Notes: generated from the sequence alone by a model not told the origin. A stretch of 64,000 nucleotides of DNA from an uncultured Saprospiraceae bacterium (GCA_938045585.1 CALIAU010000004.1:25534-89533); one strand, 5' to 3'; shown: positions 7,727-35,649, numbered from the stretch's first letter. A program made the numbers and translations.

Positions 7727-8364
7727 AACAAATTTTTCTTCTCATCAGTCTCTGTTCACTTATTGCCTGTTCTAAAAAGATAGTTGAGCCAGTTCCTGCT
7801 GAACGCATTGACAGACTCTATACGTATTTAGCAGGTAGTTATACGAATACAGAACAAGTAGAAAGCTCTGAAGCAGAAGAATACCTATTACATATTGCAC
7901 CTATTTGGCAAGACTTGAAGGGAGAACATTGGCTGTATGTAGAACGACGCAATGTAAATAGTCCAAATGTTCCTACGCAGCAACAGGTCATAAAACTGGT
8001 AGAAAGCATGGATTTCCTAAAACAACAGGTGTACTTTCTACCTAATGCTAAAGACTATATAGGGGCCTGGAAAAATACCGCAGTTTTTGATTCGATCACA
8101 CCAAGTGATGTAAAAAAAATAAGTGGTTGTACTGTCTTTTTTAAAGAGGCTGAAAAAGATAATTTCAAAGGAATCACACTAGGTAAAAACTGTGGCAATA
8201 GATTTAAAGGTGCTAAATATGCGCGCACTGATATGAGTGTAAGACCAGAACACATTCGTTGGTTGCACCAGGGCTTTGACGAGAATAATCAATTTATCTG
8301 GGGACCAAAACATGGAGGAATAGAGTTTGTACAATTGGAAGAAAAAAATATGGATAAGAAATAG
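7723..8364 (+). CDS. CpcT/CpeT-like (DUF1001) lipoprotein
   Basis: Lipoprotein signal (SLIAC). Pattern LAGSYTNTEQ ... WLYVE ... GC ... G ... C ... GAKY resembles the CpcT/CpeT lipocalin-like family. Confidence 0.5.
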   Translation: MKQIFLLISLCSLIACSKKIVEPVPAERIDRLYTYLAGSYTNTEQVESSEAEEYLLHIAPIWQDLKGEHWLYVERRNVNSPNVPTQQQVIKLVESMDFLKQQVYFLPNAKDYIGAWKNTAVFDSITPSDVKKISGCTVFFKEAEKDNFKGITLGKNCGNRFKGAKYARTDMSVRPEHIRWLHQGFDENNQFIWGPKHGGIEFVQLEEKNMDKK

Positions 8365-11075: not shown

Positions 11076-11981
11076 TTACGCTCCATAGGCTGACACTGCT
11101 GCTCTATACGTATTTGCATGGGCATCAATAATATCTGCAAGCTTTTCAGAATAGCCTCCTCCCATACTTACTGCAACTGGAATTTGAAATTTTTGGCATA
11201 ATTCAAAGACATGTTCATCCCTTTGCTTACAGCCTTTTTTAGTCATAGACAGGCGTCCTAACTTATCTGAATTTAGAACATCTACTCCGCTCAAATAAAA
11301 AATAAAATCAGGTATCTCCCGCGAAATTAATGGTTCCAATGTCTCTTTCAGAATCCTTAAATATGCATTGTCATCTGTTTTATCAGCTAATCCAATATCA
11401 AGATCGGACTTCTCTTTACGCAGTGGATAATTTCTTTCTCCATGCATGCTAAACGTAAATACCCTTGGGTTGTCTTCAAATATTTTTGCAGTTCCATTCC
11501 CCTGATGTACATCAAGATCAACGATTAATATTTTTTTGACTAATTTTTCTTCTAACAGCAAGTTAGACGCAATTGCAAAGTCATTAAATATACAAAAGCC
11601 TTCACCCCGATCTTTAAAACTATGGTGGGTGCCACCTGCAACATTTAATGAACAACCATATTGCAAAGCATACTTTGCACATTGATAGCTCGCTCCTGCG
11701 ATATGTTTTCCACGGATAATTAATTCCTTCATTACGGGAAATCCTATATCTCTAATCTCTTTACGACTAAGCGTAAGGTTATCTAATTTCCGAATATATT
11801 CTTTACTATGTGTGCGTTCTATTTGCTCATTCGTGAGCGCTGTTGGAGAAAAGAATGCGTCCTTGCTTACCGTTTGTTCATAGATTAACTGTTCAGGCAA
11901 GAGAGTGTATTTATCCATTGGGAATCTATGCCCCTCCGGCAGACTGTATTTATAAATAGGTGAATACCCAATTTTAATCAC
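11076..11981 (-). CDS. histone deacetylase-family (HDAC/AcuC-like) amidohydrolase
   Basis: DLDVHQGNG, GGTHHS and GGGYS motifs. The ORF track extends to an ATG at 12044 and overlaps the giant gene's 3' end. A GTG at 11981 gives (M)IKIGYSPIYKYSLPEGHRFPMDKY, the typical N-terminus of this family, and removes the overlap. Confidence 0.8.
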   Translation of the reverse strand: MIKIGYSPIYKYSLPEGHRFPMDKYTLLPEQLIYEQTVSKDAFFSPTALTNEQIERTHSKEYIRKLDNLTLSRKEIRDIGFPVMKELIIRGKHIAGASYQCAKYALQYGCSLNVAGGTHHSFKDRGEGFCIFNDFAIASNLLLEEKLVKKILIVDLDVHQGNGTAKIFEDNPRVFTFSMHGERNYPLRKEKSDLDIGLADKTDDNAYLRILKETLEPLISREIPDFIFYLSGVDVLNSDKLGRLSMTKKGCKQRDEHVFELCQKFQIPVAVSMGGGYSEKLADIIDAHANTYRAAVSAYGA

Positions 11982-11991
11982 AGAAGAGAAT

Positions 11992-14900
11992 TTAGCGCAA
12001 GATAGAGATATCACCAAAGAATCTTTGCTCTTCTCCTTGTACATTTTCTATTACAAGGTAATAGACATATACTCCAGGGTTAAGTTGTTCTCCGTTCCAA
12101 TCTCCAGCCCAACCAAAGGCAGGATCATTACTGACAATGTTTTGTCGATACATGACTCTATTTCCCCATCGATCATAAATAATAAATTCTTTTATCGTTC
12201 TGTCTATAGCTGACTGAACAAAGAATATATCATTTGAACCATCGCCATTCGGGCTAAAAATGCTTGGGATAAAAATTTCCTCACGTTGATCTATTGGCAC
12301 AAAGAGAGTGAGTATATCAGTACATCCATTATCATAGCTTATTTCGATAGTAAAATTGGCACTTTCACTCAGTGTCGCAATAGGACTCAGACAATTGGAA
12401 CAACTTAAGAGCTCAGAGTTACTCCAAAGCACTTCGACTATAGTTACATCAGAAAATATATCAAACTGAAAAGTAGAGTCTGATATTGCTGTATAACTGG
12501 CATTTGCTTCTGGTAATGCTATTTGTAAATCTTCTACCAAAACTGAATCAAGATTTGAACAGCCATTCGCAGAGTCAAAGCTTTCTAAGTAGTACCATCC
12601 TTCCACATTTACTTCTATAAGCGCTTCTGAGAATGGTAACAAAGATCCATCTGGACCAAACCACTCATAGCTAATACTAGAACTCATATCCGATGCAGAA
12701 GCATCTAAAACAAAATTTTCGTCCACACATGGATTAAACGGCGATTGTTCTAAACTTATGAATGGAATTTGCACATTTGAATTTATAACAACAGAATCAA
12801 TTGCGCTACAGCCATCATCAAACAATACTTCAAAATAGTATGTTCCCTCCTCTGTCACTTCTAACTCTAAACCATTTGCAAGTACTGCGCCTGATTCATC
12901 TAACCAACTAGGATTTCCCCCATCTATACTTTCACCTACTAAATTTACCAAGGCATTATCGCAACTAAGTGTTTGACTTTGACCGGCTTCCACTTGCTGT
13001 AAACAATCTGTTGAACAAGCATTCGGAGCATTGACTATGAGCAGTCCATTACATGCAGAATCTCCACTATCTGTAAACAATAAACTCACATTTCCATCTG
13101 AAATTAGATAAGGACCAAATAAGACAGTGCTACCATACAGACCTGACGCCACACTTGGATCATCTACTATCCAGTTAGTACCTATGTTTGTGCCCGTAAC
13201 AACCACATCAAACTGATATGTATCATCACTCGGGTCAGTTGTTCCCATATTATCACAACTCACATCTCCTAAACTTAGATCAATCATACACGAGGCCTGT
13301 GAACAATCAGAAGGTGCTTCTACAATTACCATTGCAGAACATGTCAAATTATTCGCATCTATTATATTAAAATTAAGATCTCCATTACTTATAGCATATG
13401 GACCAAAGATACTTGTAGAACCATAGATACCAGTCGTCATATTAGGGTCATCTGCGATCCAACTTGAACCAGTATTCATCCCATCTACAAACAAGCTAAG
13501 AGTAAAGGTATCATCTGAGCCATCATTTGGCGTACCGTTATCATCGCAGACAACTCCCATATTTTGTGTTGTTATGGAACATACAGGATCAATGCAATCC
13601 GTAGGTACTTCTACTTGAACTTGCACACTACAAGCAGGATCATTTGCATCTATTACATTAAAAATTGCATCCCCGTCACTGATTAAGAAAGGGCCAAAGC
13701 TTCTAAGAACACCATAGTCACCAGTAGTGCTATTCATATCAGTTGCTATCCAAGAAGTGGAATTGACGTTTGTTCCAGTCACAAGGAGATCAAAGGTGTA
13801 CGTATCATCTGCAGTATTATTTACAGTGCCATTATCATTACAGACAAGGTTTGTACTTGTGTACAATAATGCACAATCATTAGAACAACTTGGTGGTGCC
13901 ACTACTTCTCCTAGTATACTACATTGATCATCCACCCCATCTTCTATGATAAAATTAAAATCACCGTTTGCAATTAAATATGGTCCCATTGTTATAAGTG
14001 TATTATAAGAACCACTAGAATTATTTGGATCATCTGCAGTCCAACTCGAACCTACATTCATTCCTTCAACAAATACATCAAAACTAAAGAGGTCATCGCT
14101 AGGATCTAAGCTAGTCCCATTATCATCACAGCTATAGTTTGAAATTGTCATTTCGATAAGACAGACATCTGAACAAGCACTTGGTGGAGTAACACTTACA
14201 ATTGTAGAACAATCAGGGTCATTCACATCTTCTACAACAAAGTTCAATATTCCATCTGAGATCGCGTAAGGACCTAAATTACTTATAGAATTATACTGCC
14301 CCATACTTCCGTTCGGATCACCTGCTACCCAGGCAGTACCCAAATTTGAACCTGTTATTTCTAAATCAAAATAATACAGATCATCACTACCCTCTGATGG
14401 TGTATTATTTGGATCACAGGTGACATTACTTACAATATTCGTTAAACTACAACTGGTAGAACATGCATCCGGAGCTATCACAATTGCAGTTGCTGAACAA
14501 TCAGAATTCGATACGTCGCTAATTAAAAAGTTTTGGTTACCGTCAACAATCGCATAGGGTCCAAAGCTAACAACAGTACCATAGCTACCGCTCGTTAGAT
14601 TAGGATCGCTCGCAGTCCACATCCCAGACGCATTTGTTCCTGTCACAAATAAATCAAAGGTATAGGTATCATCACTATTGTCTGAAGGTGTATTATTATT
14701 ATTACATAAAACATTAGATAAGACGTATTCAATTTCGCAAGCATTTGAACAGCTTGGAGGTGCTTCTACTAGCACGGAATACACACAGGAAGGATCCGCA
14801 GCATCTGTTATTACAAAACTTAGATCGCCACCGCTAATCGGGTAGGGTCCAAAGCTACTTGTAATATCATAATTACCATTCGTTGTGTTTGGATCTGTTG

Positions 14901-17900
14901 CTTCCCATCCAGCTCCAATATTATCTCCTGAGACAATCAAATCAAAGCTAAATACATCATCTGTGCTTTCACTGGATGTTCCATTGTCATCGCAATTTAT
15001 ATTACTTACTATTGCTTCTATAACACAAAGATCAGAACAGCTTAGTGGTGCTTCGATGCTTATTTGATCTAAACACATACTCGATGTGGCATCTTCAATA
15101 TCTAAACTAAGATCACCGTCACTTATCAAATATGGACCAAAACTTGTTATTTCTCCCATATTCCCTGTCGTTCCATTTGGATCATTTGCAATCCAACTTA
15201 GGCTAGCATTTGTACCTTCTACCAATACATCAAACATATAGGTATCATCACTCGGATCAGAAGGTGTTCCGTTATCATTACAAGCAATTGAAATTAAACT
15301 TGCGTCAATAGCACAGGCGTCAGAACAAGGTGCTGGTGCTTCCACTCCCACACTTGTACTACAATTCATATCTAGTCCATCTGTAATTGTGAAATTTAAA
15401 TCTCCATCTGATATAAGATATGGGCCAAAGCTAATGGAATTTCCATAAGAACCAGAGGTAGCATTTGGGTCATTCGCACTCCACGTTGTCCCTGCATTTT
15501 CACCTTCCACTATCACTATAAAACTAAATAGATCATCTGAAGCATCACTTGGTGTCCCATTGTCATCACAGCTTACACTTATTACATTTGCTTCTAAGGA
15601 ACAAAGATCGGAGCAAGGTATTGGTGGTTCTACACTCACTATAGTTGTACAATCCGGATTTGCATCATCTGTCACTGTGAAATTTAAAATACCATCACTA
15701 ATAAGATATGGACCCATAGGCACTAGGTTATTGTACAAGCCTGAAATTAAAAATGGGTCGTTTGCCGACCAACTTGAACCTATATTGGAACCTACAACTA
15801 ATATATCAAAGAAGTAAATATCGTCAGTTGGGTCGCTTGGGGTTCCATTGTCACTACATGTTATATTACTTACAGTATTAGAAATACTACAACTTACAGA
15901 ACATGCTGATGGAGCTTGTACAAGTACTGTAGCTGTACACATTGGGTCATTTGTATCCGTAATCACAAAATTCTGGTTACCATTACTAATTGGATATGGC
16001 CCAAGGGTGATTGTTTCATTATAATTTCCAGAGCTAAAATTTGGATCATTTGCAGACCATGTAAGGGCAGTATTTAATCCTGTTACCACGATGTCAAATG
16101 TATAGGTATCATCTGAATCATCACTGGGTGTTCCATTATCATTACAAAGAATATTATTTGCGGTATAATTAATATCACAGAGATTGGAACAGCTCGCAGG
16201 TGCACTTACCATCACAGGTACTGTACAAGCATTCTCAACTGCATCTGTAATGGTGAAATTAATATTTCCTCCACTTATTGGGTACGGACCAAGGGTTACG
16301 ATGGCATCATAGGCACCACTCGTAGCATTCGGGTCAGAAGCAGACCAACTATTCGAAGTATTAAATCCAGTAACAAATACATCAAAGGTAAATACATCAT
16401 CACTCGGGTCACTTGGTGTTCCATTATCAGCACAGGAAACATTAGAAACCATTGCATTGATTTCACAGAGATCTGAACAAGTCGCAGGCGCAATAATGCT
16501 CAAGTCATAAACACAGTTTATGTCTCCCATGTCAGTTATAGTAAAATTCTGGTCACCGCCGCTAATTGGGTATGGTCCAAAAAATTCTGTAACATCATAT
16601 ATACCAGTAGTCCCATTTGGATCATTTGCAGTCCATGAGCCTGATACATTGGAACCTGTTACTAGGAGATCAAAGCTATACGTATCATCACTCGCATCAG
16701 AAGGCGTACCATTGTCCGAACATACAACAAGACCCTCTGTAATTTCTAAAGCACAGACATCCGAACAAGTCATTGGTGTTGCTACATTTATTAGAACCGA
16801 ACAACTATTTGAGTTTCCATCTGTAATTGTAAAATTCTGATCTCCATCACTTATAAGATAGGGTCCAAAACTTGTCAAAGCTTCATACGCACCAGAGACG
16901 GCATTCGGATCATTTGCAGACCATGTTGTTCCTGTATTCAATCCCGTCACGAGAACATCAAAGCTGTAGCTATCATCACTAGGGTCAGACGGTGTGTTAT
17001 TATCATTGCATACTATACTACTTACTACTGCTTCGATATCACAAAGGTCGGAACAGCTCATTGGTGGTATCACACTTACAATAGTTGTACAACTGGGATC
17101 AGCAATATCATCTGTAATTGTAAAGTTTAAAGTACCATTTGCAATTTCATACGGGCCCATAGGTACGGTAACTCCATACAAGCCTGTCGACAATAATGGA
17201 TCATCTGCAGTCCATGCGTTTCCTATATTAGACCCTGTTACAACAAGATCAAAAAAGAAGAGGTCATCCGTTGGATCACTAGGAGTTCCATTATCATCAC
17301 AAGTAATATTATCTACTAGGTTTGTGATACTACAGGTGGTCGAGCAGGTATTGGGTGCTAGGACTGTAACATTTGCTGTACAAAGTGAATTACTTGCATC
17401 TGTAATAGTAAAATTTTGGTTACCATCACTTATGTTGTAAGGGCCAAAACTTACAATTGTGTTATAATTTCCTGTCGCCCCATTTATCTCATCTGCTGAC
17501 CATGATCCTGAAGTATTAAATCCAGTCACTACCACATCAAAGGTGTAGAGATCATCTGTATCATCACTAGGCGTTCCATTCGCATCACAAAGAATATTTG
17601 AGACAACTACATCAATCGCACATGCATTAGAACAACTCAAAGGTGCCATTACAGTAATAATTTCTGTACATCCTGGACTTACACCATCTGTAATTGTAAA
17701 GTTAATATCACCACCACTAATAGGATAAGGCCCAAAACTCACTGTGCTATTATACGCACCACTAGTAGCATTCGGATCAGAAGCAGACCAAGAACCACCT
17801 ACATTATTTCCAGTAACAGTTACATCAAAACTAAAGACATCATCACTAGCGTCTGCGGGCGTACCATTATCATCACAAACTGCGGTTGCAAGATCAACAA

Positions 17901-20900
17901 CTATATCACACACATCCGAACAGCTCATAGGAGGCAATACACTCAAACTCTCTAAACAATTTCCATCTACAGCATCTATGATATCAAAATTTATTGCTCC
18001 CCCACTTATAGGATATGGACCAAATACAATACTCATATCATAGGGCCCACTTGTTGCATTCGGATCCGTTGCTACCCAATTTGTTGCAACATTAGAACCA
18101 GTTACTTCTACTTCAAAACTAAAGGTATCATCCGTTGGGTCACTAGGTGTATTGGCATCATTACACATTATGTTTGTAAACATAGCTTCTAAGTCACAAA
18201 GATCTGAACAGCTCATTGGCGCAGCCACATTTACAAAAAATGTACAACTTGGATCTACCCCATCTGTAATTGTAAAGCCTAGATCACCGTCTGATATTAA
18301 AAAAGGACCAAAGCTTGTTATTCCACCGTAGGAACCCGAGTTCATGTTAGGATCGTTAGAAGACCAACTAGAACCTATATTCATACCATCAACAAATAAA
18401 TCAAAAGTAAACAGATCATCCGATGGGTCAGATGGTGTATTATTATCATCGCAGCTAACAGCACTAACAGTAGCTTCTAAGGTACATACATCAGAACAAG
18501 TCATAGGCGGCACCAAAGTTAGCTCAGTGGTACACATGTCATCTATGTCATCCGTTATTATTACATTAATTGGGCCACCACTTATTGGATATGGTCCTAA
18601 GATCGTACTTACTCCATATAAACCATTCGTCCCTAAAGGGTCGTTTGCAGTCCATGCTGTACCAACATTTAAACCTGACACAACTATTTCAACAGTGAAC
18701 ATATCATCAGACGGATCACTAACTGTATTATTATCAAGACAGCTTATATCTCCGATTGTATTCGATATACTACAGGTAGTAGAACAAGTTGCTGGTGCAT
18801 CCACCATGACATCCGCAGTACATAGCATATCTGATGCATCTGTGATTGTAAAGTTTATCGTTCCATTTGAAATTGGATAAGGACCCATGCTTGTAATTAC
18901 TCCATACGCTCCTGTTGTAGCAAGAGGGTCGTTTGCAGACCAAGTACTGGCAGTATTAGATCCGTTTACCTCAATATCAAAACTATAGTTGTCATCCGTA
19001 TCATCGCTTGGTGTGTTATTATTATTACATACAATATTTGTTACTGTATATTCTATAACACAAAGATTTGAACAAGTCATCGGTGCAGTTATATTCACCG
19101 TCGTTGCACAAAGTGCCTCATCTATATCTGTAATGTTAAATACTAAGTCTCCTCCACTTATTGGGTAGGGCCCAAAGGATACAGAGCTACCATATGCACC
19201 ACTCGTCATCAGAGGATCAGTTGCACTCCAAGAAAGACCAGTATTAGAACCTGTAACAACTAGGTCAAAACTGAAGGTATCGTCGTCTGGGTCAGAAGGT
19301 GTATTATTATCGTCGCAAACTGCCGCTGTTGGAACAGCATTAATAGCGCATAAATCGGAACAAGTAGATGGTGGTGTCACGTTTACTACAGCCGTACAAA
19401 GACCATCTGTATCATCAAAAATATTAATCGTTACTGCTCCGTCTGCAATGGCATAAGGACCAAAAACAACTATTGCACCATAGGCTCCAGTTATCCCTGC
19501 AGGATCATCTGAATTCCACATGGTGGCAGTATTTGCACCAGTAACTACAAGTTCAAAGCTGAAGGTATCATCACTCGGGTCAGAAGGCGTGTTATTATCA
19601 TTGCAACTTACCATACCCACAGTTGCATCAATATCACATAGATTTGAGCAGCTAGGCGGAGGGGATACCATAACGGATGTTTGACAGCTACCGTCAATAT
19701 TATCTGTAATTGTAAAGTTTGTAGCACCACCTGATATTAGATAGGGCCCAAAAGTTTGTGCAGAACCATAGGAACCTGATGTCATACTAGGATCCGTAGC
19801 TACCCATGATGCGCCCGTATTTAATCCAGTTACTGTCACATCAAAAGAATACGTATCATCTGTTGGGTCACTAGGCGTACCATTGTCGTCACACATAGGT
19901 ATACTTGCAACAGCACTAATATCACAAAGATTAGAACAGGTCATCGGTATACTCACTGTTGCTACTGTGCTGCAACCAGGGCTTGTATCATCTGTAATCG
20001 TAAATACAATCGGTCCATCACTGATATTATATGGCCCCAATATTTCATTTACACCATATAAGCCAGAAGAAGCAAGAGGATCATCAGCTGTCCACCCTCC
20101 TCCTAGATTCAAACCAGTTACTAAGATTTCAACTGTATATGTATCATCTGATGGGTCACTCGGAGTACCATTATCACTGCACAGTGTTTCAATAATTGAA
20201 TTGGAAATACTACAGGTAGTAGAACAGCTTGATGGTTCAGTAACCATAACATTTGCAACGCAAGCATTATCATCAATATCTGTTATTGTAAAACTCACTG
20301 GACCACTAGATATATCAAAGGGCCCCAAATTGGTCACCACTCCATACATTCCAGAAGAATTATTAATATCATTTGCAATCCAAGATGCACCTGTATTACT
20401 ACCCGTAACAGTTACATCAAAATAAAATGTATCGTCTGTATCATCACTAGGTGTCCCCTCATTATTACAGCTTGGAGCACCTACTATTACTTCTATGTTA
20501 CAGGTATTAGAACAGCTCATCGGTGGGTCCACACTTATAACAGCTGTACACGCAGGATCATTATCATCTGTAACAGTGATACTTACTGAACCACCAGAGA
20601 TAGAGAAACCACTTAATGTTTGGTCCACACCATAGCTTCCTGTTGTACTCATTGGATCGTTTGCTGTCCATCCGCTTCCAGTATTTACACCCGTAACATT
20701 TAGATCAAAAGAAAAAGTATCATCAGATGGATCACTTGGTGTACCATTATCATTACACATTGGGATACTTGCACTTGCCACAATATCACATAGATTGGAA
20801 CAGCTAGGTGGAGCTGTGATCATAACTACATCATTACATGTAGGGTCTGTGTTGTCTGATACAGTAATACTTATAGTACCACCAGAAATTGGAAAGCCAC

Positions 20901-23900
20901 TTAATGTTTCATCGACTCCGTAAGTTCCAGTCGTATTCATTGGATCGTTAGCAGTCCATCCACTTCCTGTATTTAGACCAGTAACATTGAGGTCAAAGCT
21001 AAAGGTATCATCTGAGGGATCACTTGGTGTACCATTATCATCACAATCTGGAGTAGATGGTACAGCAGTAATATCACAAGTATTGGAACAGCTAGTAGGT
21101 GCAGGAATAATAATCATATTAGTGCACAATGGATCATCATCATCTGTAATCGTAATGATAAGATCTCCTCCTGAAATGGGAAAGCCGCTAAAACTCTCGT
21201 CTACACCGTAAGACCCTGAAGTATTTGATGGATCATTTGCAGTCCACGTAAGTCCTGTATTTGCTCCAGTAACATTCAAGTCAAAAGAAAAGGTATCATC
21301 ACTTGGATCACTTGGTGTACCATTATCATCACACATAGGAGTTGAGGCTGCTATTGAAAGAGCGCATAAATTTGAACAGGTATTTGTTGGCGCAGCTACG
21401 CTAACTATATCTATGCAGCTAATTTCAACGTTATCCATTATTGTTATAAGAACATCACCTCCTGAAATGGGAAAGCCACTTATCGTTTCATCGACTCCGT
21501 ACACACCTGTTGTAGACATTGGATCGTTTGCAGTCCATCCTGCTCCTGTCATAAAACCAGTGACATTTACATCAAAGGAAAAGGTATCATCACTTGGGTC
21601 ACTTGGTGTGCCATTATCATTACAGACCGCTGCAGATACCACTGCGCTTATATCACAATCATTGGAACAGGCAGCTGGCGCTGGAATAATAATCATGTAT
21701 GTACAAAGCGGATCAGTATCATCTACAATCGTAATTGTTACATCACCTCCTGAAATTGGAAAACCACTAAAACTTTCGTCAACGCCATAAGTCCCTGATG
21801 TATTTAGTGGATCATCCGCAGTCCAACTGCTTCCTGTGTTTGATCCTGTTACATTAAGATCAAAGGAAAAGGTATCATCACTTGGGTCACTTGGTGTACC
21901 ATTATCATCGCACATCGGAGTTGATGCTATGGCTGAAATCACACATAGTTCAGAACACGTTGTTAATGGAGCAGATACACTGATAACATCTGTACAAGTG
22001 AGATCATCGATATCCACAATCGTTATTATTACATCACCTCCTGAAATTGGAAAACCACTCAATGTTTCATCCACTCCATATACACCTGTTGTAGCCATTG
22101 GGTCGTTAGCAGTCCACCCTGCTCCCGTCAATAGGCCAGTTACATTGAGATCAAAGGAAAAGGTATCATCACTTGGATCACTTGGCGTACCATTATCATC
22201 ACATACTGCCTCAGATGCCACTGCTGTAATGTCACAATCTGTTGAACACGTTGTAGGTGCAATAATCGTAATCATCTCAGTACACAATGGATCGTCATCA
22301 TCCATAATGGTAATTGTCACATCTCCTCCTGAAATGGGAAAGCCACTAAAACTTTCGTCTACACCATAGGTCCCTGATGTAATTAATGGATCATCCGCAG
22401 TCCAACTGCTTCCTGTATTTAATCCCGTTGCATTTAAATCAAAAGAAAAGGTATCATCACTTGGGTCACTTGGAGTACCATTATCATCACACATCGGTAT
22501 GGAGGCTGTTATGTTAATCACACAAAGATCAGAACACGTTGTTAATGGCGCAGATACACTGATAACATCTGTGCATGTAGGATCATCGTTATCTACTATC
22601 GTAATAATCACATCCCCTCCTGAAATCGGAAAACCACTCAATGTTTCATCCACTCCATATACACCTGAGGTAGTCATTGGATCATTTGCTGTCCATCCCG
22701 CTCCTGCCATTACTCCAGTTACATTCAGATCAAAGAAAAAAGTGTCATCACTTGGATCACTTGGCGTACCATTATCATCACAGTCTGCTATAGAAGCTAC
22801 TGCTGTAATATTACAGCTTGTTGAACACGTCGTAGGTGCAGGAATCGTAATCATTTCTGTACATGATGGATCGTCGTTGTCGGTGATCGTAATCGTTACA
22901 TCACCTCCAGAAATTGGAAAGCCACTAAAACTTTCGTCTACACCATAAGTTCCTGAAGTACTTAAGGGATCATCCGCAGTCCAACTGCTTCCTGTATTTA
23001 TTCCTGTTACATTGAGATCAAAAGAAAAGGTATCATCACTTGGATCACTTGTCGTGCCATTATCATCACACATCGGCATGGAGGACGTCACTGAAATATC
23101 ACAAGCATCAGAACAAGTTCCTGGATCAGGAAGCCAAAATTGCAAAACACATAGGGGGTAGGTATCATCATTGACCGTTATAATCATTCCTCCTCCCCCT
23201 GCACTTCCTGGCAAGGTTTGAAATATCTGTGGAGCACCGTAGGTTCCCCCTGGTGGTATAGTTGTTATAGGCGAAATAGTATAGGATGTTCCAAGACCTA
23301 CTCCAGTAGGATTTATTTCAAAAACTATATAATCGTCGGTAGGATCTCCTGGTGTTCCATTATCATTACATCCCAATGCACTAAAATTCATTCCTGAAAA
23401 TTCTATATCACAAAAACATTCAGCTGGCACTGGCACATCTATATCAAACGTACAAGATGGATCATCAAAATCTTCAATCGTAAACATTAGGCTGGGAAAT
23501 CCTGATGAGAAATAAGGACCCATCTCCACTGGCACTCCATACGTACCAGTGCCGGCGGCGTCCCCGTCTGAATCTACTGCACCCCAACCAGAACCTACAT
23601 TCGTACCTTCTACTGTTACATCAAAGGTCAAAAGACCATCACTTTGACAGACAATATTTGTTACATCTGCTGAAGTAATTGAACACGAACAATCATCCAC
23701 AACTATTGTCATGGAAGTTTCGCTAGCACATTCATCCATATCCGGAGTGAATGTATATATATGATCTCCAACACCTAGGGTCGAAGGGTTAAACATATTG
23801 CTAGGTGACCAGCTACCGTTTATCCCATTGTCAGATACGTTCGGCAGACTTACATTTATATTTTCTGTATTACAATAGGGTCCCACCTGCATAAAACTTG

Positions 23901-25143
23901 GTGTCTCTTCAGGTATTATAGTAAATTCAAAAGTTGCAGAGTTTGTCGTATTTGTACAGCCATTCGCATCAGTGACTTCATCAATAGTCAGTGAACCCAT
24001 ATTAGTCAAACTTGCAACGCCCGGCCAAACATGCACTGAGTTATCAGAATCAACCCAGTTTACTGGATCAAAAAGTCCTCCAGCTGTATAGTCAAGACAG
24101 GCTGTTAAAATGTTTTCTCCAGCCTCAAAAGTAAGTGTGTTTGTATTTGTGATACCTAATACCGTAGCATCAAATGTAACATCAAAGGGCGCATCTCCAA
24201 TTAGTTCTAATTCTATTTCAATACATGTGCCATCCTCACAGACATCATCTGTCAAATCAGATGACAGCCAATCTGCAGACACTGTATTTACTACAATGGC
24301 AATTTGATCTGAGCCAAGACACGCATTTTCATCAGTGGTAACTACAGTATAAGATCCAGCTTCTGCAGCACTCGCATTTGGAATATTCCAAGGATTATTT
24401 GGACTAGCTCCTGAAGGGCCGGTCCAACTCCATGAAACAGCATCCGCAGTATTTTCTGAAAGGTTAATACTTTCTCCCGCACAAATGTCCGTATCCAATG
24501 CCTCTGCAACTGGCTCTTGCCAGCATAACATGACTACATTATCAAACATCATTTCTTCATCACCTCCCGTAGTTCTCATTGTAACTTCTATGATCGCATT
24601 TGCATTATCAGTGCAGGCAGGAGGAAATTCAATCAGTGCAGACATAGGAATATAATCAGTCCCAATGAGTTCTATGTTCGTGTTTACACCATCTATAATA
24701 ATATCAAAACTTGCAAAATCCCAACATGTGCAATTCGGATGTGCCCAATCACTTGGATCTCCCGGACAGGGGCCTGTACTACCAACACAATTTTCACTGG
24801 AAGATTCTAAAGCATCGTCCCCTGTAGCTGGATATGAATCTCCTGAGTAATCCATAGATACCGAAATAGAAGTACAATTAGAAATATCAATTGGATCTGT
24901 TGTCCAAGTCGCAGCATCGTTTGTATCATCTGCTGTTAGAGTACCATTATTTACTGCGAAAATATCATCGGGAGCGGCGCAGCCAGGGCATACTGAATTC
25001 CATGCTACACCTTCTGCACTTGTACCAGAAGTAGCACCATTGGATTCGTCAAAAGTTTCTGAAAATATGGTCGTTTGGCTAAGGGCCATACAAGGGATGC
25101 ATAGCAAGGCCAATAACAGTTGCAATATTCTCAGGTGTTTCAT
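11992..25143 (-). CDS. giant (4383 aa) acidic cell-surface repeat protein with T9SS type B (gliding-motility-associated, CHU_C-like) C-terminal domain
   Basis: Signal peptide MKHLRILQLLLALLCIPCMALSQ. 37 tandem ~96-97 aa Cys-framed repeats. Terminal ~95 aa are IPSIFSPNGDGSNDIFFVQ...YDRWGNRV...GWAGDWNG...NPGVYVYY, the hallmark of type B CTDs. Confidence 0.9.
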   Translation of the reverse strand: MKHLRILQLLLALLCIPCMALSQTTIFSETFDESNGATSGTSAEGVAWNSVCPGCAAPDDIFAVNNGTLTADDTNDAATWTTDPIDISNCTSISVSMDYSGDSYPATGDDALESSSENCVGSTGPCPGDPSDWAHPNCTCWDFASFDIIIDGVNTNIELIGTDYIPMSALIEFPPACTDNANAIIEVTMRTTGGDEEMMFDNVVMLCWQEPVAEALDTDICAGESINLSENTADAVSWSWTGPSGASPNNPWNIPNASAAEAGSYTVVTTDENACLGSDQIAIVVNTVSADWLSSDLTDDVCEDGTCIEIELELIGDAPFDVTFDATVLGITNTNTLTFEAGENILTACLDYTAGGLFDPVNWVDSDNSVHVWPGVASLTNMGSLTIDEVTDANGCTNTTNSATFEFTIIPEETPSFMQVGPYCNTENINVSLPNVSDNGINGSWSPSNMFNPSTLGVGDHIYTFTPDMDECASETSMTIVVDDCSCSITSADVTNIVCQSDGLLTFDVTVEGTNVGSGWGAVDSDGDAAGTGTYGVPVEMGPYFSSGFPSLMFTIEDFDDPSCTFDIDVPVPAECFCDIEFSGMNFSALGCNDNGTPGDPTDDYIVFEINPTGVGLGTSYTISPITTIPPGGTYGAPQIFQTLPGSAGGGGMIITVNDDTYPLCVLQFWLPDPGTCSDACDISVTSSMPMCDDNGTTSDPSDDTFSFDLNVTGINTGSSWTADDPLSTSGTYGVDESFSGFPISGGDVTITITDNDDPSCTEMITIPAPTTCSTSCNITAVASIADCDDNGTPSDPSDDTFFFDLNVTGVMAGAGWTANDPMTTSGVYGVDETLSGFPISGGDVIITIVDNDDPTCTDVISVSAPLTTCSDLCVINITASIPMCDDNGTPSDPSDDTFSFDLNATGLNTGSSWTADDPLITSGTYGVDESFSGFPISGGDVTITIMDDDDPLCTEMITIIAPTTCSTDCDITAVASEAVCDDNGTPSDPSDDTFSFDLNVTGLLTGAGWTANDPMATTGVYGVDETLSGFPISGGDVIITIVDIDDLTCTDVISVSAPLTTCSELCVISAIASTPMCDDNGTPSDPSDDTFSFDLNVTGSNTGSSWTADDPLNTSGTYGVDESFSGFPISGGDVTITIVDDTDPLCTYMIIIPAPAACSNDCDISAVVSAAVCNDNGTPSDPSDDTFSFDVNVTGFMTGAGWTANDPMSTTGVYGVDETISGFPISGGDVLITIMDNVEISCIDIVSVAAPTNTCSNLCALSIAASTPMCDDNGTPSDPSDDTFSFDLNVTGANTGLTWTANDPSNTSGSYGVDESFSGFPISGGDLIITITDDDDPLCTNMIIIPAPTSCSNTCDITAVPSTPDCDDNGTPSDPSDDTFSFDLNVTGLNTGSGWTANDPMNTTGTYGVDETLSGFPISGGTISITVSDNTDPTCNDVVMITAPPSCSNLCDIVASASIPMCNDNGTPSDPSDDTFSFDLNVTGVNTGSGWTANDPMSTTGSYGVDQTLSGFSISGGSVSITVTDDNDPACTAVISVDPPMSCSNTCNIEVIVGAPSCNNEGTPSDDTDDTFYFDVTVTGSNTGASWIANDINNSSGMYGVVTNLGPFDISSGPVSFTITDIDDNACVANVMVTEPSSCSTTCSISNSIIETLCSDNGTPSDPSDDTYTVEILVTGLNLGGGWTADDPLASSGLYGVNEILGPYNISDGPIVFTITDDTSPGCSTVATVSIPMTCSNLCDISAVASIPMCDDNGTPSDPTDDTYSFDVTVTGLNTGASWVATDPSMTSGSYGSAQTFGPYLISGGATNFTITDNIDGSCQTSVMVSPPPSCSNLCDIDATVGMVSCNDNNTPSDPSDDTFSFELVVTGANTATMWNSDDPAGITGAYGAIVVFGPYAIADGAVTINIFDDTDGLCTAVVNVTPPSTCSDLCAINAVPTAAVCDDNNTPSDPDDDTFSFDLVVTGSNTGLSWSATDPLMTSGAYGSSVSFGPYPISGGDLVFNITDIDEALCATTVNITAPMTCSNLCVIEYTVTNIVCNNNNTPSDDTDDNYSFDIEVNGSNTASTWSANDPLATTGAYGVITSMGPYPISNGTINFTITDASDMLCTADVMVDAPATCSTTCSISNTIGDISCLDNNTVSDPSDDMFTVEIVVSGLNVGTAWTANDPLGTNGLYGVSTILGPYPISGGPINVIITDDIDDMCTTELTLVPPMTCSDVCTLEATVSAVSCDDNNTPSDPSDDLFTFDLFVDGMNIGSSWSSNDPNMNSGSYGGITSFGPFLISDGDLGFTITDGVDPSCTFFVNVAAPMSCSDLCDLEAMFTNIMCNDANTPSDPTDDTFSFEVEVTGSNVATNWVATDPNATSGPYDMSIVFGPYPISGGAINFDIIDAVDGNCLESLSVLPPMSCSDVCDIVVDLATAVCDDNGTPADASDDVFSFDVTVTGNNVGGSWSASDPNATSGAYNSTVSFGPYPISGGDINFTITDGVSPGCTEIITVMAPLSCSNACAIDVVVSNILCDANGTPSDDTDDLYTFDVVVTGFNTSGSWSADEINGATGNYNTIVSFGPYNISDGNQNFTITDASNSLCTANVTVLAPNTCSTTCSITNLVDNITCDDNGTPSDPTDDLFFFDLVVTGSNIGNAWTADDPLLSTGLYGVTVPMGPYEIANGTLNFTITDDIADPSCTTIVSVIPPMSCSDLCDIEAVVSSIVCNDNNTPSDPSDDSYSFDVLVTGLNTGTTWSANDPNAVSGAYEALTSFGPYLISDGDQNFTITDGNSNSCSVLINVATPMTCSDVCALEITEGLVVCSDNGTPSDASDDTYSFDLLVTGSNVSGSWTANDPNGTTGIYDVTEFFGPYPISGGDQNFTITDMGDINCVYDLSIIAPATCSDLCEINAMVSNVSCADNGTPSDPSDDVFTFDVFVTGFNTSNSWSASDPNATSGAYDAIVTLGPYPISGGNINFTITDAVENACTVPVMVSAPASCSNLCDINYTANNILCNDNGTPSDDSDDTYTFDIVVTGLNTALTWSANDPNFSSGNYNETITLGPYPISNGNQNFVITDTNDPMCTATVLVQAPSACSVSCSISNTVSNITCSDNGTPSDPTDDIYFFDILVVGSNIGSSWSANDPFLISGLYNNLVPMGPYLISDGILNFTVTDDANPDCTTIVSVEPPIPCSDLCSLEANVISVSCDDNGTPSDASDDLFSFIVIVEGENAGTTWSANDPNATSGSYGNSISFGPYLISDGDLNFTITDGLDMNCSTSVGVEAPAPCSDACAIDASLISIACNDNGTPSDPSDDTYMFDVLVEGTNASLSWIANDPNGTTGNMGEITSFGPYLISDGDLSLDIEDATSSMCLDQISIEAPLSCSDLCVIEAIVSNINCDDNGTSSESTDDVFSFDLIVSGDNIGAGWEATDPNTTNGNYDITSSFGPYPISGGDLSFVITDAADPSCVYSVLVEAPPSCSNACEIEYVLSNVLCNNNNTPSDNSDDTYTFDLFVTGTNASGMWTASDPNLTSGSYGTVVSFGPYAIVDGNQNFLISDVSNSDCSATAIVIAPDACSTSCSLTNIVSNVTCDPNNTPSEGSDDLYYFDLEITGSNLGTAWVAGDPNGSMGQYNSISNLGPYAISDGILNFVVEDVNDPDCSTIVSVTPPSACSDVCLIEMTISNYSCDDNGTSLDPSDDLFSFDVFVEGMNVGSSWTADDPNNSSGSYNTLITMGPYLIANGDFNFIIEDGVDDQCSILGEVVAPPSCSNDCALLYTSTNLVCNDNGTVNNTADDTYTFDLLVTGTNVNSTSWIATDMNSTTGDYGVLRSFGPFLISDGDAIFNVIDANDPACSVQVQVEVPTDCIDPVCSITTQNMGVVCDDNGTPNDGSDDTFTLSLFVDGMNTGSSWIADDPNMTTGIYGSTSIFGPYAISNGDLNFNIIDANNLTCSAMVIVEAPSDCSQASCMIDLSLGDVSCDNMGTTDPSDDTYQFDVVVTGTNIGTNWIVDDPSVASGLYGSTVLFGPYLISDGNVSLLFTDSGDSACNGLLIVNAPNACSTDCLQQVEAGQSQTLSCDNALVNLVGESIDGGNPSWLDESGAVLANGLELEVTEEGTYYFEVLFDDGCSAIDSVVINSNVQIPFISLEQSPFNPCVDENFVLDASASDMSSSISYEWFGPDGSLLPFSEALIEVNVEGWYYLESFDSANGCSNLDSVLVEDLQIALPEANASYTAISDSTFQFDIFSDVTIVEVLWSNSELLSCSNCLSPIATLSESANFTIEISYDNGCTDILTLFVPIDQREEIFIPSIFSPNGDGSNDIFFVQSAIDRTIKEFIIYDRWGNRVMYRQNIVSNDPAFGWAGDWNGEQLNPGVYVYYLVIENVQGEEQRFFGDISILR
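13018..23115 (-). repeat. in-frame tandem array of 35 canonical ~96-97 aa (~288-291 nt) coding repeats
   Basis: Unit consensus by eye: CS-x2-C-x10-C-[DN]-[DN]-N-G-T-P-S-D-P-S-D-D-[TLV]-[FY]-x-F-D-x-x-V-x-G-x-N ... W-x-A-x-D-P ... G-x-Y-G ... G-[PF]-[YFP]-x-I-S-[GD]-G ... F-x-I-x-D ... C ... P. 10098 nt / 35 = 96.2 aa per unit. Two degenerate copies lie just upstream (~23116-23700). Confidence 0.9.
20800..23115 (-). repeat. 4 x 579-nt higher-order (two-unit, A/B alternating) repeat inside the array
   Basis: Plus-strand antisense ORFs end at 21211, 21790, 22369 and 22948, exactly 579 nt apart, each with ...SPPE[MI]GKPLKLSSTP. At protein level, units alternate TGSSWTADDPL-TSGTYGVDESFSG (96 aa) with GAGWTANDPM-T-GVYGVDETLSG (97 aa). 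Confidence 0.9.
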
Positions 25144-25217
25144 TTCAAATGCAAAGGTGATGATTTTAAAGAAAGTAATGAAACCTACCCTCTTGAATCA
25201 CCTATATTTTCGTTTAA

Positions 25218-28200
25218 TTATCGTAGTAATGTCACATTTCCTGCAAATCTAAGCACTCCTCTTCCAGGTATTTCTACATCAAAATAGTAGACATATACTC
25301 CAGGATTCAAATCTACACCATTCCAGTCTCCTTCCCACCCTATCGCTGGGTCGTTCGTAAAAGCACTAGACACATAGTAGACTCTATTTCCCCATCTATC
25401 GTAAATCGTAAAATCACGGAGCTCATATTCACTTTCTGATTGCACAAAAAACACATCATTGCTTCCATCATTATTTGCACTAAATATGGAAGGAATATAA
25501 ATATCAGTTGAAGCAACAGGCGCGATTATCAGGGTATCAAATAAGACACAGCCATTCCCATAATAGGCTTCCAAGAACAACATGGATGAATCTTGAGCAC
25601 TTGCAATTGTGCTGACACAATTCACACACTCTACTAAACTTGAAGGAGACCAAACAACACTGTCTATAGACACATTGGATGTAAAACTTACATTAAAGCC
25701 ATCTCCTACAATGGAACCTAAGATGGCATCTAACTGCGGATTGTTATTTACATTTATTTGGAAGATTTGTACTTCAGAACAAGCATTTGCATCTATAATT
25801 TCTGCAGATGCTCCCGCGGTAGAAACAAAAAAGGAAAATGGCAAACTATTCGTTTGATAAGTCTGTCCGTCTCCAGTATTCATAATGCTAATCGGAAAAT
25901 TTAAAATGTCCGCACTTACTAAAGTCACCTCAACAAAATCGTCTCCCTCGCATCCTTCTGCTACACTAAATTGATAGTTCCTATCAAAGACTAGATTAAC
26001 CATAAACATAGTATCACACTCTTGGGCACTGCTCGCATTCACGACTGCTGATCCCGATGGTGTATTTTCATCAAAGGTCATTCCACCTAGGGTAATAGAC
26101 TCGCCTGCACATAAAGTATCTGTTAAACTTGCCATCACCTCCTGGTCTATACTTACCGTGACAAAGAGAGTACTATCACATCCATTCACTGATGCATTTG
26201 GGAATATCTCCGTTCCAGAAAGATTTGTTTCACTGTATTCCGTACCATTGATTATTTCTACTGAACCTGGACACAAACTAAGATTTAAAAAATCTTCTGA
26301 CACAGGAAAAAACTCTAAATCAATATTTACCAAACTATCACAACCTTCTGCAGACCCTCCTAATAACAATTCCGAACCTGTCTGGTTATTAATATCATAT
26401 ACTTCATTATTTACCGTAACGGAAAAGTCAGGGCAAAACATGCCATTAATTTCACCTGCAAGCTGGGTGCTAAACGTTAGACTCACATTTACGATGCTAT
26501 CGCATCCATTTACACTTGCTGAAGGAATCAAGACTGAACCTGTTGGATTATTTTCATCAAATACCTCTCCTAATATTATTATGCTCTCTCCTGTACAAAG
26601 TTCATCATCCATTAGAAATTCTGCTGGAGGATGAAATTGCAAATTAACCATCACAGTAGTATCACAGCCTTGCGCGCTACCATCATCAATCACAGCAGAC
26701 CCTATTGGGTTCCCCATATTAAAATCTATACCTCCTATTGTTACTGTTTCGTTTTCACAAATTGGTCCAGTAAAATTTCCTACAGCAGCATCCAAAAACT
26801 CAAGATCAACTGTAATTACCGAATCACAACCAAATACACTTCCACCTGGAATCATATCCGATCCACTTTGGTTATTTATATCATAGGTCGTTCCATTTAA
26901 TTCCACTTCAAACTCATTACATACTTCTCCATCTACTACTAACTCACTGAAACTTGTAAACTCTAGATTTACCGCAATGATACTGTCACAATTAAATATC
27001 GTATTGAGTACCAGCGTATCTGAAGGATTAGATTCATCAAATACCTGTCCTCCTACATTTAAACTTCCACCTGTACATAGGGTCTGATCTATAAAGAGCG
27101 TATCATTTCCGTAGGTCGTCAACTCAATTATTTCATCAAATTCAAAAGCACAACCGCCAAATGTTTCTACGCCAAACAAAGTAATTGTGTATTCATGACT
27201 TGGTTCTAGTATTAAGAATTCCAAAACTGCAGGATTAAAATTATTACAAACTATTAACGGGAAACTTGCTGATGGAGATGGCCCAAGCACTAATGTATCT
27301 ATATCTACATTCCCGTCTTCATCTACTATTTCAAAAAATGCTTGAGCTGAATCAGAAGAATATTCAAGCAAAAACTCACCACAAGCACCCTCGCACAAAT
27401 CTGTTATTTGAGAAGTAAATGAAACAGTCGTCTCCATGCGTACATCTATAACTATCTCCGAAACATCTTCTGGACACGCACCTCCCCCTACAGTGTATAA
27501 AAATCCAAATGGACCTCCAGTCGAAGGTGTAAATATGCTACCGGATAAGGTACCTGTATTATTGGGATCACTAAACACGCCTCCTAGATCAGCGTCTGGA
27601 GGAAGGGAGTTTATAAGGTCATATGCGTCCATTGCACACAGCGTGTCTAAAACGTTTGGCCCAGCGCTCACCATTGAAACTATATTAACAACAATATCTG
27701 CAACAGCATCTTCTTCGCAGGGAAAAATCCCAGAACCAAAATGACTAAATAAATATGCATTTCCTTCAACTAGGACATCTGTATTTAAAAATGTTCCCGT
27801 CAAGGCACCTACCGCTGTGGTATCTGTAAACTCTCCAACAAAAGTATTTCCACTAAGTGCATCTAAGAGATTAAAAGTACCTCCTGCACAGACAAACACT
27901 TCATTGCTTTGGCCCACAAGGAAAGTAGTTTCTTCTATTAATTCAAACTCCACCTGACTCGATGTACATCCATCACTATCCACTGCTTCAATAAAATACG
28001 TTCCAGGAGCTGTTGGCTGAAATGGGTTTCCCGTAAACACCAGCATCCCCATATCGTCATACCAATTTGCAGTAAGCCCTGCTTCAATCATTGCATCGAT
28101 AGCAGGGATCGCCTCATCTGAGCAATACTCAATATCTTGATTTGTTGGATCAGCAACCGCACCACAATCACAGCCCATAAAAGTAAACATGAATTCATTA

Positions 28201-30704: not shown

Positions 30705-30933
30705 TATGGCAATATCAAATTAAGCTGGAGGCCTTGGGGTTTAAAATTACAACTTAGAGTTGAGAAATCAGGAATAAGTCTATTCCAATATTTAACAAAA
30801 AGTAAAAAAATAGCTCTCTAGGTGCCCTATTATCTTAATTATCCACAGAATCGCTAAACTTCCGAATAATCCGGCTTAAAAAGCTTGTCAAGCAGCTATT
30901 CCTAAATCAAAGCACTTTCATATATGCTTTTAC

Positions 30934-30941
30934 TATATTTG
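30934..30941 (+). promoter_or_regulatory. candidate Bacteroidota sigma-A -7 box (TATATTTG) for lysS
   Basis: Exact match to TAnnTTTG, 22 nt upstream of the lysS ATG. No convincing -33 TTG identified. Confidence 0.3.
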
Positions 30942-30962
30942 AGCCTAAATTTTCAAGAATAG

Positions 30963-35640: not shown

Positions 35641-35649
35641 GATTCTTAT

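Follow-up and report, generated by a model that had tools for sequence, protein, structure and literature searches.

Giant bacterial surface proteins made of tandem immunoglobulin-like (Ig-like) domains have been described in several organisms. MpIBP, a type I secretion system (T1SS) RTX adhesin of the gammaproteobacterium Marinomonas primoryensis, has ~120 near-identical repeats, and its region II (RII) extender is a very acidic tandem array of Ig-like domains of ~100 amino acids (aa) that is rigidified by Ca2+ between the domains and projects the binding region outward. GhpA of Aureispira sp. CCB-QB1 has 5,898 aa and a stem of 52 Ig-like repeats with disulfides between neighboring domains, and it is heptameric (bioRxiv 10.1101/2024.01.29.577165). 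The ghpA gene is followed by ghpB (PorP) and ghpC (PorE), and the GhpA stem appears to be O-glycosylated on every domain (bioRxiv 10.1101/2024.01.29.577165). Fibrillar adhesins consist of a stalk and an adhesive tip with tandem stalk domains that lie <35 residues apart, and 82 Pfam stalk families, including PF19403-PF19408, have been listed for them (Monzon et al. 2021, PMC8286594). Here we discuss a 4,383-aa protein encoded in a stretch of 64,000 nucleotides (nt) from an uncultured Saprospiraceae bacterium (GCA_938045585.1, CALIAU010000004.1:25534-89533), which is referred to as the window. The protein is type IX secretion system (T9SS) cargo with a C-terminal domain (CTD) of type B, and most of its length is an array of a four-cysteine repeat. 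A preliminary description of the window had drawn attention to it.

We read the protein, with a probability of roughly 0.7, as a T9SS-exported, fibrillar adhesin-like surface protein in which a variable head would sit on a stiff, polyanionic, disulfide-clamped stalk of 37 unnamed Ig-like domains. We will examine the reading frame, the repeat and its family, followed by the predicted fold, the cysteine statistics and the composition of the stalk. The proposed function, the rival readings and the relationship to known systems will then be discussed.

Reading frame, repeat unit and repeat family

The open reading frame (ORF) listing gives one uninterrupted frame of 13.15 kb on the minus strand that encodes the 4,383 aa. 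A stop is expected every ~15 codons at the local base composition and the chance of 4,383 open codons is ~1e-132, which bears out the single intact ORF claimed in the preliminary description. The longest ORF in the other frames of this region has 180 aa. The anchor CS-x2-3-C occurs 36 times at a spacing of 96-97 aa from aa 677 to aa 4043; these 36 anchors bound 35 canonical units, the 36th opening the C-terminal region. When the 35 canonical units were made into a hidden Markov model (HMM), it recognized exactly 37 units, the two most N-terminal of which are degenerate (Table 1). Scores were 105-129 bits for three canonical units and 134 bits for the highest-scoring one, and unit 1 is without the DNGT..DD loop. 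These counts match the 37 repeats (2 degenerate and 35 canonical) that had been claimed. The example unit offered earlier (22537-22827) is exactly unit 4, and the conserved core motif described earlier matches the 14 columns that are invariant in the protein: C1, C5, C16, T21, D27, D28, G38, W45, G55, I68, G71, D79, C85 and P94.

The remaining parts of the protein are summarized in Table 1. The putative signal peptide, as judged by eye, starts with a basic n-region, followed by a hydrophobic core and a cleavage site resembling ALS|Q. In the head, Pfam reports a weak, sub-threshold PKD match (E=0.024). The Cys-rich module of ~190 aa at the N-terminus of the head has only two full-length relatives among 5.8 billion sequences, with 70% (P0159) and 33% (P0161) identity. 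The C-proximal region matches PF19081 Ig_7, a CHU_C-associated Ig-like family, below the cut-off (E=6.7e-4). The type B CTD that had been recognized at the C-terminus was confirmed, as aa 4291-4377 match both PF13585 CHU_C (45.8 bits, cut-off 27) and TIGR04131 (39.3 bits, cut-off 35) above the curated cut-offs.

Table 1. Positions of the gene, the parts of its product and the upstream neighbor, counted from the first letter of the window
Feature	Position	Strand	Basis or remark
Whole gene, 4,383-aa T9SS type B cargo	11992..25143	-	Stop codon 11992-11994; ATG start
Putative Sec-type signal peptide, aa 1-23 (MKHLRILQLLLALLCIPCMALSQ)	25075..25143	-	Read by eye from the translation
Head, aa 24-482 (459 aa)	23698..25074	-	Cys-rich module of ~190 aa, then Ig-like/PKD-like modules
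Two degenerate units, aa 483-579 and 580-676	23116..23697	-	HMM scores of 42 and 37 bits; alignment
Canonical array, units 3-37, aa 677-4042	13018-23115	-	Anchor spacing, invariant columns
Canonical units 3-11	20515..23115	-	Two-unit super-repeat; youngest part of the array
Canonical units 12-37	13018..20514	-	Five-unit (480-481 aa) super-repeat
Beta-rich C-proximal region, aa 4043-4290 (~250 aa)	12274..13017	-	Starts with the Cys closing unit 37
T9SS type B CTD, aa 4291-4383	11995..12273	-	PF13585, TIGR04131
1,828-aa type B cargo, upstream neighbor	25218..30704	-	CHU_C and Ig_7 matches

The repeat was compared with known domains in Pfam-A (24,736 models, 2025 copy) and NCBIfam 20.0. A scan of the whole protein against both at E≤1 reported the CTD alone. 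Single and double units gave nothing meaningful in Pfam-A at E≤10, and the 35 units taken singly at the same threshold matched six unrelated families with one unit each (best E=0.02). The SprB repeat (PF13573) matched neither the whole protein at E≤1 nor single units at E≤10, HYR (PF02494) and HYR_4C (PF23237) gave no Pfam match to the repeat, and no match covering the unit was obtained with PKD, cadherin, TSP3, Big_1-Big_x, DUF11, CARDB, Calx-beta or the other Pfam stalk families. The preliminary description had been unable to place the repeat among the SprB, HYR, PKD, cadherin, TSP3 and Big families; all of these are in Pfam-A and none match. The HMMER comparison of the unit with Pfam that it had proposed has now been run and returned no significant match covering the unit, the only NCBIfam match of the whole protein being the CTD. 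Searches of the sequences in the PDB with a profile of the 35 units (E≤10), a profile of 65 family sequences (E≤10) and the full protein (phmmer, E≤1) gave no meaningful match; the best were a picornavirus-type VP2 and a cryptophyte phycoerythrin alpha chain (E~0.4-0.7). Kinship with the four-Cys HYR_4C repeat encoded elsewhere in the window was rejected, as hhalign against its 10 units gave a probability of 0.1%. Pfam matches in relatives of the protein (Emfourin, DUF7601, DUF5640 and others) were also rejected because each adds up weak partial matches across many repeats and contains zero significant stretches. By these sequence searches, the unit is not a known domain.

The unit belongs to a large family. 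When 1.84 billion representatives of clusters at 50% identity were searched exhaustively with HMMER, 1,582 proteins passed E≤1e-3, of which 951 passed E≤1e-10 and 389 passed E≤1e-30, so that the wide search with an HMM of the 35 units proposed earlier has returned a real domain family of 1,582 representative clusters. Family statistics were taken from units of the best 150 relatives together with the giant protein. These 151 proteins contain 1,276 units, 7 per protein at the median and 39 at most, and the units are nearly always adjacent, at a spacing of 92-108 aa. Conservation across the family is high at C5 (94%), C16 (97%), T21 (94%), D27 (98%), D28 (98%), D79 (91%) and C85 (94%), with Y57 at 85%. 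The heads differ wholly between the giant relatives. Among eight complete-looking relatives, three end in CHU_C (type B CTD) and three in Por_Secre_tail (type A CTD), and relatives combine the units with DUF11, CARDB, GEVED or SprB modules. With heads, CTDs and companion modules all varying, the unit acts as a stalk module that is portable among T9SS cargo proteins. The names that relatives carry at their source refer to other parts of the proteins, such as 'gliding motility-associated C-terminal domain', 'DUF11' and 'DUF7507'.

Scanning GTDB with one genome for each species gave 77 loci, 76 of them in Bacteroidota, with a best unit identity of 60%. Saprospiraceae, Phaeodactylibacter, Lewinella/Lewinellaceae or Saprospirales labels account for 58 of the 77; the others are 12 unspecified Bacteroidota, 2 Chitinophagales, 2 Cyclobacteriaceae, 2 Kordia and 1 Okeania. 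The last is a contig of the cyanobacterium Okeania sp. KiyG1 (locus L078, NZ_BLZO01000197.1), and a protein labeled Candidatus Nanoperiomorbaceae (P0016) also carries the repeat. Both records are likely contamination or mis-binning from Bacteroidota, and the Okeania contig probably comes from an epibiont. Cultivable bacteria that carry the repeat include Phaeodactylibacter xiamenensis KD52 and P. luteus. A word-indexed protein search with the unit profile returned only 3 fragments, which reflects the limited sensitivity of the tool and not the rarity of the family. Frameshift errors have presumably broken up the relatives at two loci (L001 and L002), which lie on long-read metagenome contigs of 2-3x coverage and appear there as many short called genes (60-340 aa); splitting of this kind explains why that search gave so little.

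The array also has higher-order periods. Units 3-11 form a two-unit super-repeat (79% identity at lag 2 vs 67% at lag 1) and units 12-37 form a five-unit super-repeat, or pentad (56% at lag 5 and 53% at lag 10 vs 49% at other lags). In the pentad region the markers CSxxCS[IL]xN and TPSD[DN][ST]DD occur five times each, 480-481 aa apart. Marker spacing was used to compare the phase of the super-repeat across proteins, and the same markers recur at 481 aa in a relative of 4,286 aa (P0004) and at 478-480 aa in one of 4,206 aa (P0005). Both are 47-50% identical to the giant protein and have unrelated heads. As the pentad is common to three proteins at this level of identity, it predates their divergence. 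The five-unit period was absent from the other family members examined, including one of 5,677 aa (P0006). The pentad may be only a record of block duplication, or it may be a structural period.

The evidence on the assembly of the gene was considered separately. A short-read assembly of ERR9287624 from Logan (locus L082) is identical to positions 23022-37096 of the window (14,075 nt) and gives independent support for the first 2.1 kb of the gene, ending inside unit 3. The break shows why such array genes are usually fragmented in metagenomes. Within the gene the longest exact DNA repeat is 40 nt, the DNA identity between units is 84% at most with a median of 56%, and Tandem Repeats Finder (TRF) detects only positions 20605-23074 (period 288, 8.5 copies, 70% matches). 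Collapse or chimerism of the array is unlikely because the units have diverged to this extent. Mis-assembly of the giant gene is unlikely, and it is highly improbable that the gene is an assembly artefact or a decaying pseudogene whose array was collapsed, expanded or chimeric. Such an origin would fit the fact that short-read assemblies stop at the start of the array, that the exact 4,383-aa product has no record in the gene-position collection searched, and that several relatives in low-coverage long-read metagenomes come in fragments. However, all four Cys and the invariant core are kept in every unit, and relatives of 4,286, 4,206 and 5,677 aa carry 36, 27 and 39 units, respectively. As to the interruption or mis-assembly that the preliminary description had raised, the frame is intact over its whole length and its first 2.1 kb are identical in the independent assembly.

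Predicted fold, domain register and composition of the stalk

The structure of two consecutive units plus 22 aa was predicted with AlphaFold2 from an alignment of the protein's own 33 overlapping di-units. The model has a mean predicted local distance difference test (pLDDT) score of 88.2 and seven strands per unit, at columns 6-17, 29-39, 44-47, 54-56, 60-67, 73-79 and 86-91. Foldseek searches of the PDB with this model returned only tandem Ig/FN3-like arrays, with leading E values of 3e-4 to 1e-2; the matches include leg domains of integrin alpha-V, LIR-2, NCAM2, RbmA, GhpA and the MpIBP extender, and the best template modeling (TM) scores were those of MpIBP RII (TMq 0.39-0.43). In BFVD the top matches were phage proteins annotated as 'SprB repeat' (E=5.5e-5, TM 0.3, 14% identity). 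The repeat unit is thus predicted to be an ordinary seven-strand Ig-like sandwich without a close structural relative. The suggestion that the repeat represents an undescribed family holds at the level of the sequence family and does not extend to the fold.

The cysteines were examined in the 1,186 units that could be fully scored. Loss of C16 goes together with loss of the C1 of the next unit (odds ratio 170, p=1.7e-11; 7 units lack both, vs 6 and 8 that lack only one), and a weaker association links C5 with C85 (odds ratio 7, p=0.005). At the start of an array C1 precedes 79 of 160 units (49%) vs 1,039 of 1,046 internal units (99.3%), and at the end of an array a Cys follows C85 by 6-16 residues in 157 of 168 units (93%). 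C16 follows C5 by 11-12 residues in 97% of units, and the following C1 (C1') comes 11-13 residues after C85 in 95%. There is no dominant spacing from C16 to C85 (most commonly 67-75), and C1 to C5 ranges from 2 to 9 residues, being 4 in 71%. Taken at face value, these statistics show that the true domain would be C5...C16...C85...C1' and not CS-x2-C...C, with the first Cys belonging to the preceding domain. The unit boundaries drawn earlier were therefore shifted, according to both the co-loss and the array-end statistics.

Co-loss, spacing and the predicted strand order point to disulfides between C5 and C85 and between C16 and the C1' of the next unit. The co-loss statistics are in line with the two disulfides per unit that the preliminary description had suggested, with the correction that the pairing would cross the boundary of the unit as it was then drawn. 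In the resulting arrangement strand A (5-16) would run parallel to strand G and the linker (85-97), and the two would be stapled at both ends. Force would then be carried covalently through only ~16 residues and one disulfide of each 96-aa unit, and a rod with so short a load path could not lengthen by unfolding of its domains under tension. The linkers between domains would be short. By the predicted strand order, the acidic residues D27, D28 and D79 and the D/N-rich A-B loop would lie at the junctions between domains, where they may bind Ca2+, cation binding having been suggested earlier for the loop, and stiffen the rod. An EF-hand or DxDxDG reading of the loop was considered and no claim is made for it, as the spacing does not fit the canonical motif and there is no Gly at position 6.

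The composition of the stalk is extreme. The canonical array of 3,366 aa contains 408 Asp, 65 Glu, 0 Lys, 1 Arg (R3814) and 0 His, and the stalk is ~14% Asp+Glu. In the mature protein from aa 24 to aa 4290 (12274-25074) there are 0 Lys, 3 Arg and 3 His vs ~590 Asp+Glu, and the putative signal peptide holds 3 of the few basic residues of the protein. This is a property of the family as well: Lys+Arg+His make up a median of 0.75% of family units, compared with 9.6% for the window's other long ORFs, and in at least 15 of the 151 family proteins the units lack these residues altogether.

The O-glycosylation motif of Bacteroidota is (D)(S/T)(A/I/L/V/M/T) (PMC8550257). The canonical motif was found once in the array, where 37.8 +/- 5.4 occurrences are expected from shuffles, and 229 times in 1,239 units of 150 relatives, where 1,030 are expected (ratio 0.22); control motifs across the family have ratios of 0.5-1.2. 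The repeats are not independent samples, so these depletion ratios overstate the significance. An extended motif occurs 17 times in the array vs 65 expected, and 13 of the 17 are at D28-T29-F30. The preliminary description had proposed glycosylation as one role of the DNGTPSDPSDD loop. This is not supported for O-glycosylation as a conserved feature: the canonical motif is nearly absent, and the sole recurring extended site is present in 13 of 35 units, T29 being variable. In the upstream 1,828-aa cargo the motif is not depleted (16 vs 9.8 expected). The motif is likewise absent from gingipains according to Veith et al., who argued for selection against glycosylation of T9SS cargo (PMC8729774). 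The Campylobacter-type N-glycosylation sequon D/E-x-N-x-S/T fits the loop and has 37 sites in the array. We know of no PglB-type system in Bacteroidota.

Proposed function and rival readings

In the fibrillar adhesin-like reading given at the outset, the protein would be exported by Sec, followed by folding and disulfide formation in the periplasm, and T9SS would then take it across the outer membrane by way of the type B CTD. Retention on the cell would probably depend on a PorP/SprF-like outer-membrane protein encoded outside the window. The C-terminus would be proximal to the cell and the 459-aa head would form the distal, presumably ligand-binding, tip because the CTD is presumed to be held at the outer membrane. 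The 37 repeats would be the stalk, a polyanionic rod of ~0.15-0.2 micrometre if ~4-5 nm is assumed for each Ig-like domain. Such a rod would be repelled by the cell surface, and with essentially no Lys or Arg it would present no cleavage sites to trypsin-like proteases. Two of the features used to recognize fibrillar adhesins were found, namely a tandem stalk array (37 contiguous units) and an anchoring signal (the type B CTD), and the occurrence of variable heads on the same stalk fits the architecture described for these proteins (PMC8286594).

Several observations weigh against this reading. A known adhesive domain, which is a further feature of fibrillar adhesins, was not found in the Pfam scan of the head, which recognizes none in aa 1-482. 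From a shallow alignment of 7 sequences, AlphaFold modeled the first 190 aa of the head (construct aa 1-190) with a pLDDT of only 30-50, compared with 70-93 for the two later Ig-like modules. No PorP/SprF-like or PorE-like Pfam match was found among the 18 other large ORFs of the 64-kb window. It is thought that type B cargo is held on the surface by PorP-like proteins (PMC9143113), and orphan type B substrates with a distant shuttle have been documented, showing that adjacency of the shuttle is not obligatory (PMC12618676). The co-loss signal of C5 and C85 is modest (4 double losses), and the arguments for the disulfide pairing and for where the acidic loops lie come from strand order, spacing and co-loss statistics. 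The independent assembly covers only the first 2.1 kb of the gene.

Other functions have been considered for a protein of this form. It could be a gliding adhesin like SprB, that is, a flexible type B filament moved over the surface by the T9SS/Gld motor. SprB has a type B CTD as well (PMC9143113), the protein is giant and repeat-rich, one relative joins the units with a SprB repeat (P0044), the top BFVD matches in Foldseek (E=5.5e-5) bear the SprB repeat annotation, and gliding has been reported for Aureispira, a member of the Saprospiraceae (bioRxiv 10.1101/2024.01.29.577165). We nevertheless consider gliding unlikely: the giant protein itself is without PF13573, the Foldseek similarity is generic (TM 0.3, 14% identity), and no sprF/PorP-like gene was found in the window, whereas SprB binds SprF (PMC9143113). 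In addition, the double staple and short linkers suggest a stiff rod, and SprB is described as forming thin flexible filaments (bioRxiv 10.1101/2024.01.29.577165). A stiff rod could also be assembled from several chains, as a GhpA-like appendage in which parallel Ig-like chains form a straight hollow rod with a head that catches prey or particles, the pentad reflecting lateral packing. GhpA is a T9SS substrate from the Saprospiraceae with a heptameric Ig-like stem and inter-domain disulfides (bioRxiv 10.1101/2024.01.29.577165), six of its fragments are among the top 50 Foldseek matches in the PDB, and the 480-aa pentad is kept in three giant relatives that are 47-50% identical. The scores of these fragments are weak, however (E 3e-3 to 2e-2, TM 0.2-0.3), and neither two family profiles at E≤10 nor the full protein detected sequence similarity to GhpA chains. 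PorP and PorE genes of the ghpB/ghpC type are absent here, the downstream genes encoding a deacetylase-family protein and PriA, and the pentad may just record block duplications. A multimer built in this way is accordingly quite improbable.

The charge of the stalk raises a different question, namely whether the protein is shed or loosely bound and acts mainly through its charge, as a polyanionic protein of the matrix or one that sequesters Ca2+, for instance a biofilm scaffold or a protective surface brush. The extreme acidity with basic residues nearly absent, the lack of an anchoring-partner gene nearby and of a known binding domain in the head, and the biofilm scaffold RbmA among the Foldseek matches would all be consistent with this. 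But the RbmA matches are not meaningful (TM 0.2, rmsd, or root-mean-square deviation, >22 A), the type B cargo studied so far is attached to the surface through PorP-like proteins (PMC9143113, PMC12618676), and the conserved order of head, stalk and anchor with varying heads fits presentation of a tip better than a bulk matrix. The matrix role thus seems a little more remote even than a GhpA-like multimer. The most far-reaching proposal takes the repeat not as a passive spacer but as defining a new class of Saprospirales appendage, a basic-residue-free, glycan-avoiding and doubly clamped rod in which the pentad (480 aa, ~20 nm) is an assembly period. The period may then reflect lateral packing of chains or registry with the co-conserved 1,828-aa cargo. 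By analogy, such an appendage would be comparable to the super-repeats of titin or to the GhpA heptamer, having evolved independently of GhpA. We hold this proposal to be speculative and, like gliding, unlikely.

Genomic surroundings and comparison with known systems

The gene for the 1,828-aa cargo lies 74 nt upstream of the giant gene on the same strand, and no promoter was called in the stretch between the two. Its product contains 0 Lys and is partly paralogous to the giant protein: identity is 45% in the CTD region, taken as the last 195 aa, and 31% in a 296-aa part of the head. The gene pair is kept at 64-65% identity in a JGI metagenome contig (locus L081, 1-5346). Downstream of the giant gene are a gene of the histone-deacetylase family and priA. 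Counted from its first ATG, the deacetylase-family ORF (11076-12044, minus strand) shares 53 nt with the 3' end of the giant gene. Its Pfam match does not set in before residue 40, so translation probably starts at a later, downstream codon.

The rest of the window contains housekeeping genes and two type A cargo genes, and the unit HMM found the repeat in no other ORF of the window. The LysRS encoded in the window is 78-80% identical to proteins named as Saprospiraceae, which places the source in this family, and an identical copy is present on NCBI and ENA contigs of up to 163 kb. One of the type A cargo genes (53534-62380, plus strand) encodes 2,948 aa with a type A CTD and 10 tandem HYR_4C (PF23237) domains at aa 518-1410, together with one HYR domain and a dockerin-like segment, and is unrelated to the repeat of the giant protein. 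An ORF of 648 aa (48378-50324, plus strand) has no Pfam match at E≤1e-5 and one of 218 aa (7070-7726, plus strand) has none at E≤0.01. The ORF at 7723-8364 (plus strand) encodes a protein of the CpeT/CpcT family (DUF1001), here in a Saprospiraceae genome; the family is best known as a cyanobacterial phycobiliprotein lyase.

As a kind of protein, a giant T9SS cargo of tandem Ig-like domains is already known from SprB and GhpA. What appears to be new, judged from the comparisons above, is a large sequence family without a Pfam or NCBIfam model, together with its corrected domain register. At least 1,582 protein clusters of Saprospiraceae and their relatives, many of them thousands of residues long, are now named only from their CTD or from an unrelated DUF, which is a gap in the databases; they could be annotated with a Pfam or NCBIfam model drawn up in the register C5...C16...C85...C1'. 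This family stands out by its putative double disulfide staple between strands A and G, by having next to no basic residues and by the five-unit super-repeat conserved in three of its members. If the A/G staple at both ends of the domain is true, the stalk would be mechanically inextensible. Stalk domains of Gram-positive pili are locked by isopeptide bonds, and the doubly stapled domain would be a counterpart made in the periplasm. The near-absence of Lys, Arg and His over >4,200 residues and the depletion of the glycosylation motif are striking constraints on a T9SS cargo. Both may bear on how very large folded substrates get through the T9SS or survive outside it, or on protease resistance.

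The repeat can be compared with several described modules. Like the HYR_4C domain, which is a beta-rich tandem module of ~72 aa in T9SS cargo of the same genome, it has four Cys, but the Cys pattern and motifs differ and the profile-profile probability is, as noted, negligible. In common with the Pfam stalk domains, the array has tandem copies separated by <35 residues, belongs to a long surface protein that carries an anchor signal, and would project another module; it differs from them in matching no Pfam model and in being accompanied by no known adhesive domain. The RII extender of MpIBP (PDB 5irb) gave the best TM-scores in the PDB with the two-domain model. There is no sequence similarity between the two, however, and the units of the giant protein are diverged and appear to be stapled by Cys, with Ca2+ binding being a proposal in their case.

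The closest comparisons are with other T9SS cargo. SprB of Flavobacterium johnsoniae, which binds SprF, shares the type B CTD, the giant size and probably the form of a repetitive Ig-like surface filament, whereas the giant protein is without PF13573 and without an adjacent sprF-like gene. GhpA has no detectable sequence relationship to the giant protein, its gene is accompanied by downstream ghpB and ghpC, which the giant gene is without, and its stem is apparently glycosylated whereas the stalk described here is depleted of the glycosylation motif. The likenesses to GhpA are nevertheless extensive. Fragments of the GhpA stem (PDB 9flw, 9g8b, 9fls, 9flv, 9flu and 9flp) are among the structural matches of the repeat, and disulfides link neighboring stem domains in GhpA as they probably do here, judging from the cysteine statistics. 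Both are giant T9SS substrates of the Saprospiraceae lineage with an N-terminal head, which is presumably distal here as it is in GhpA, a long stem of Ig-like domains, predicted in the present case, and a C-terminal sorting domain; GhpA has a signal peptide, and the layout of one is seen by eye in the protein described here.

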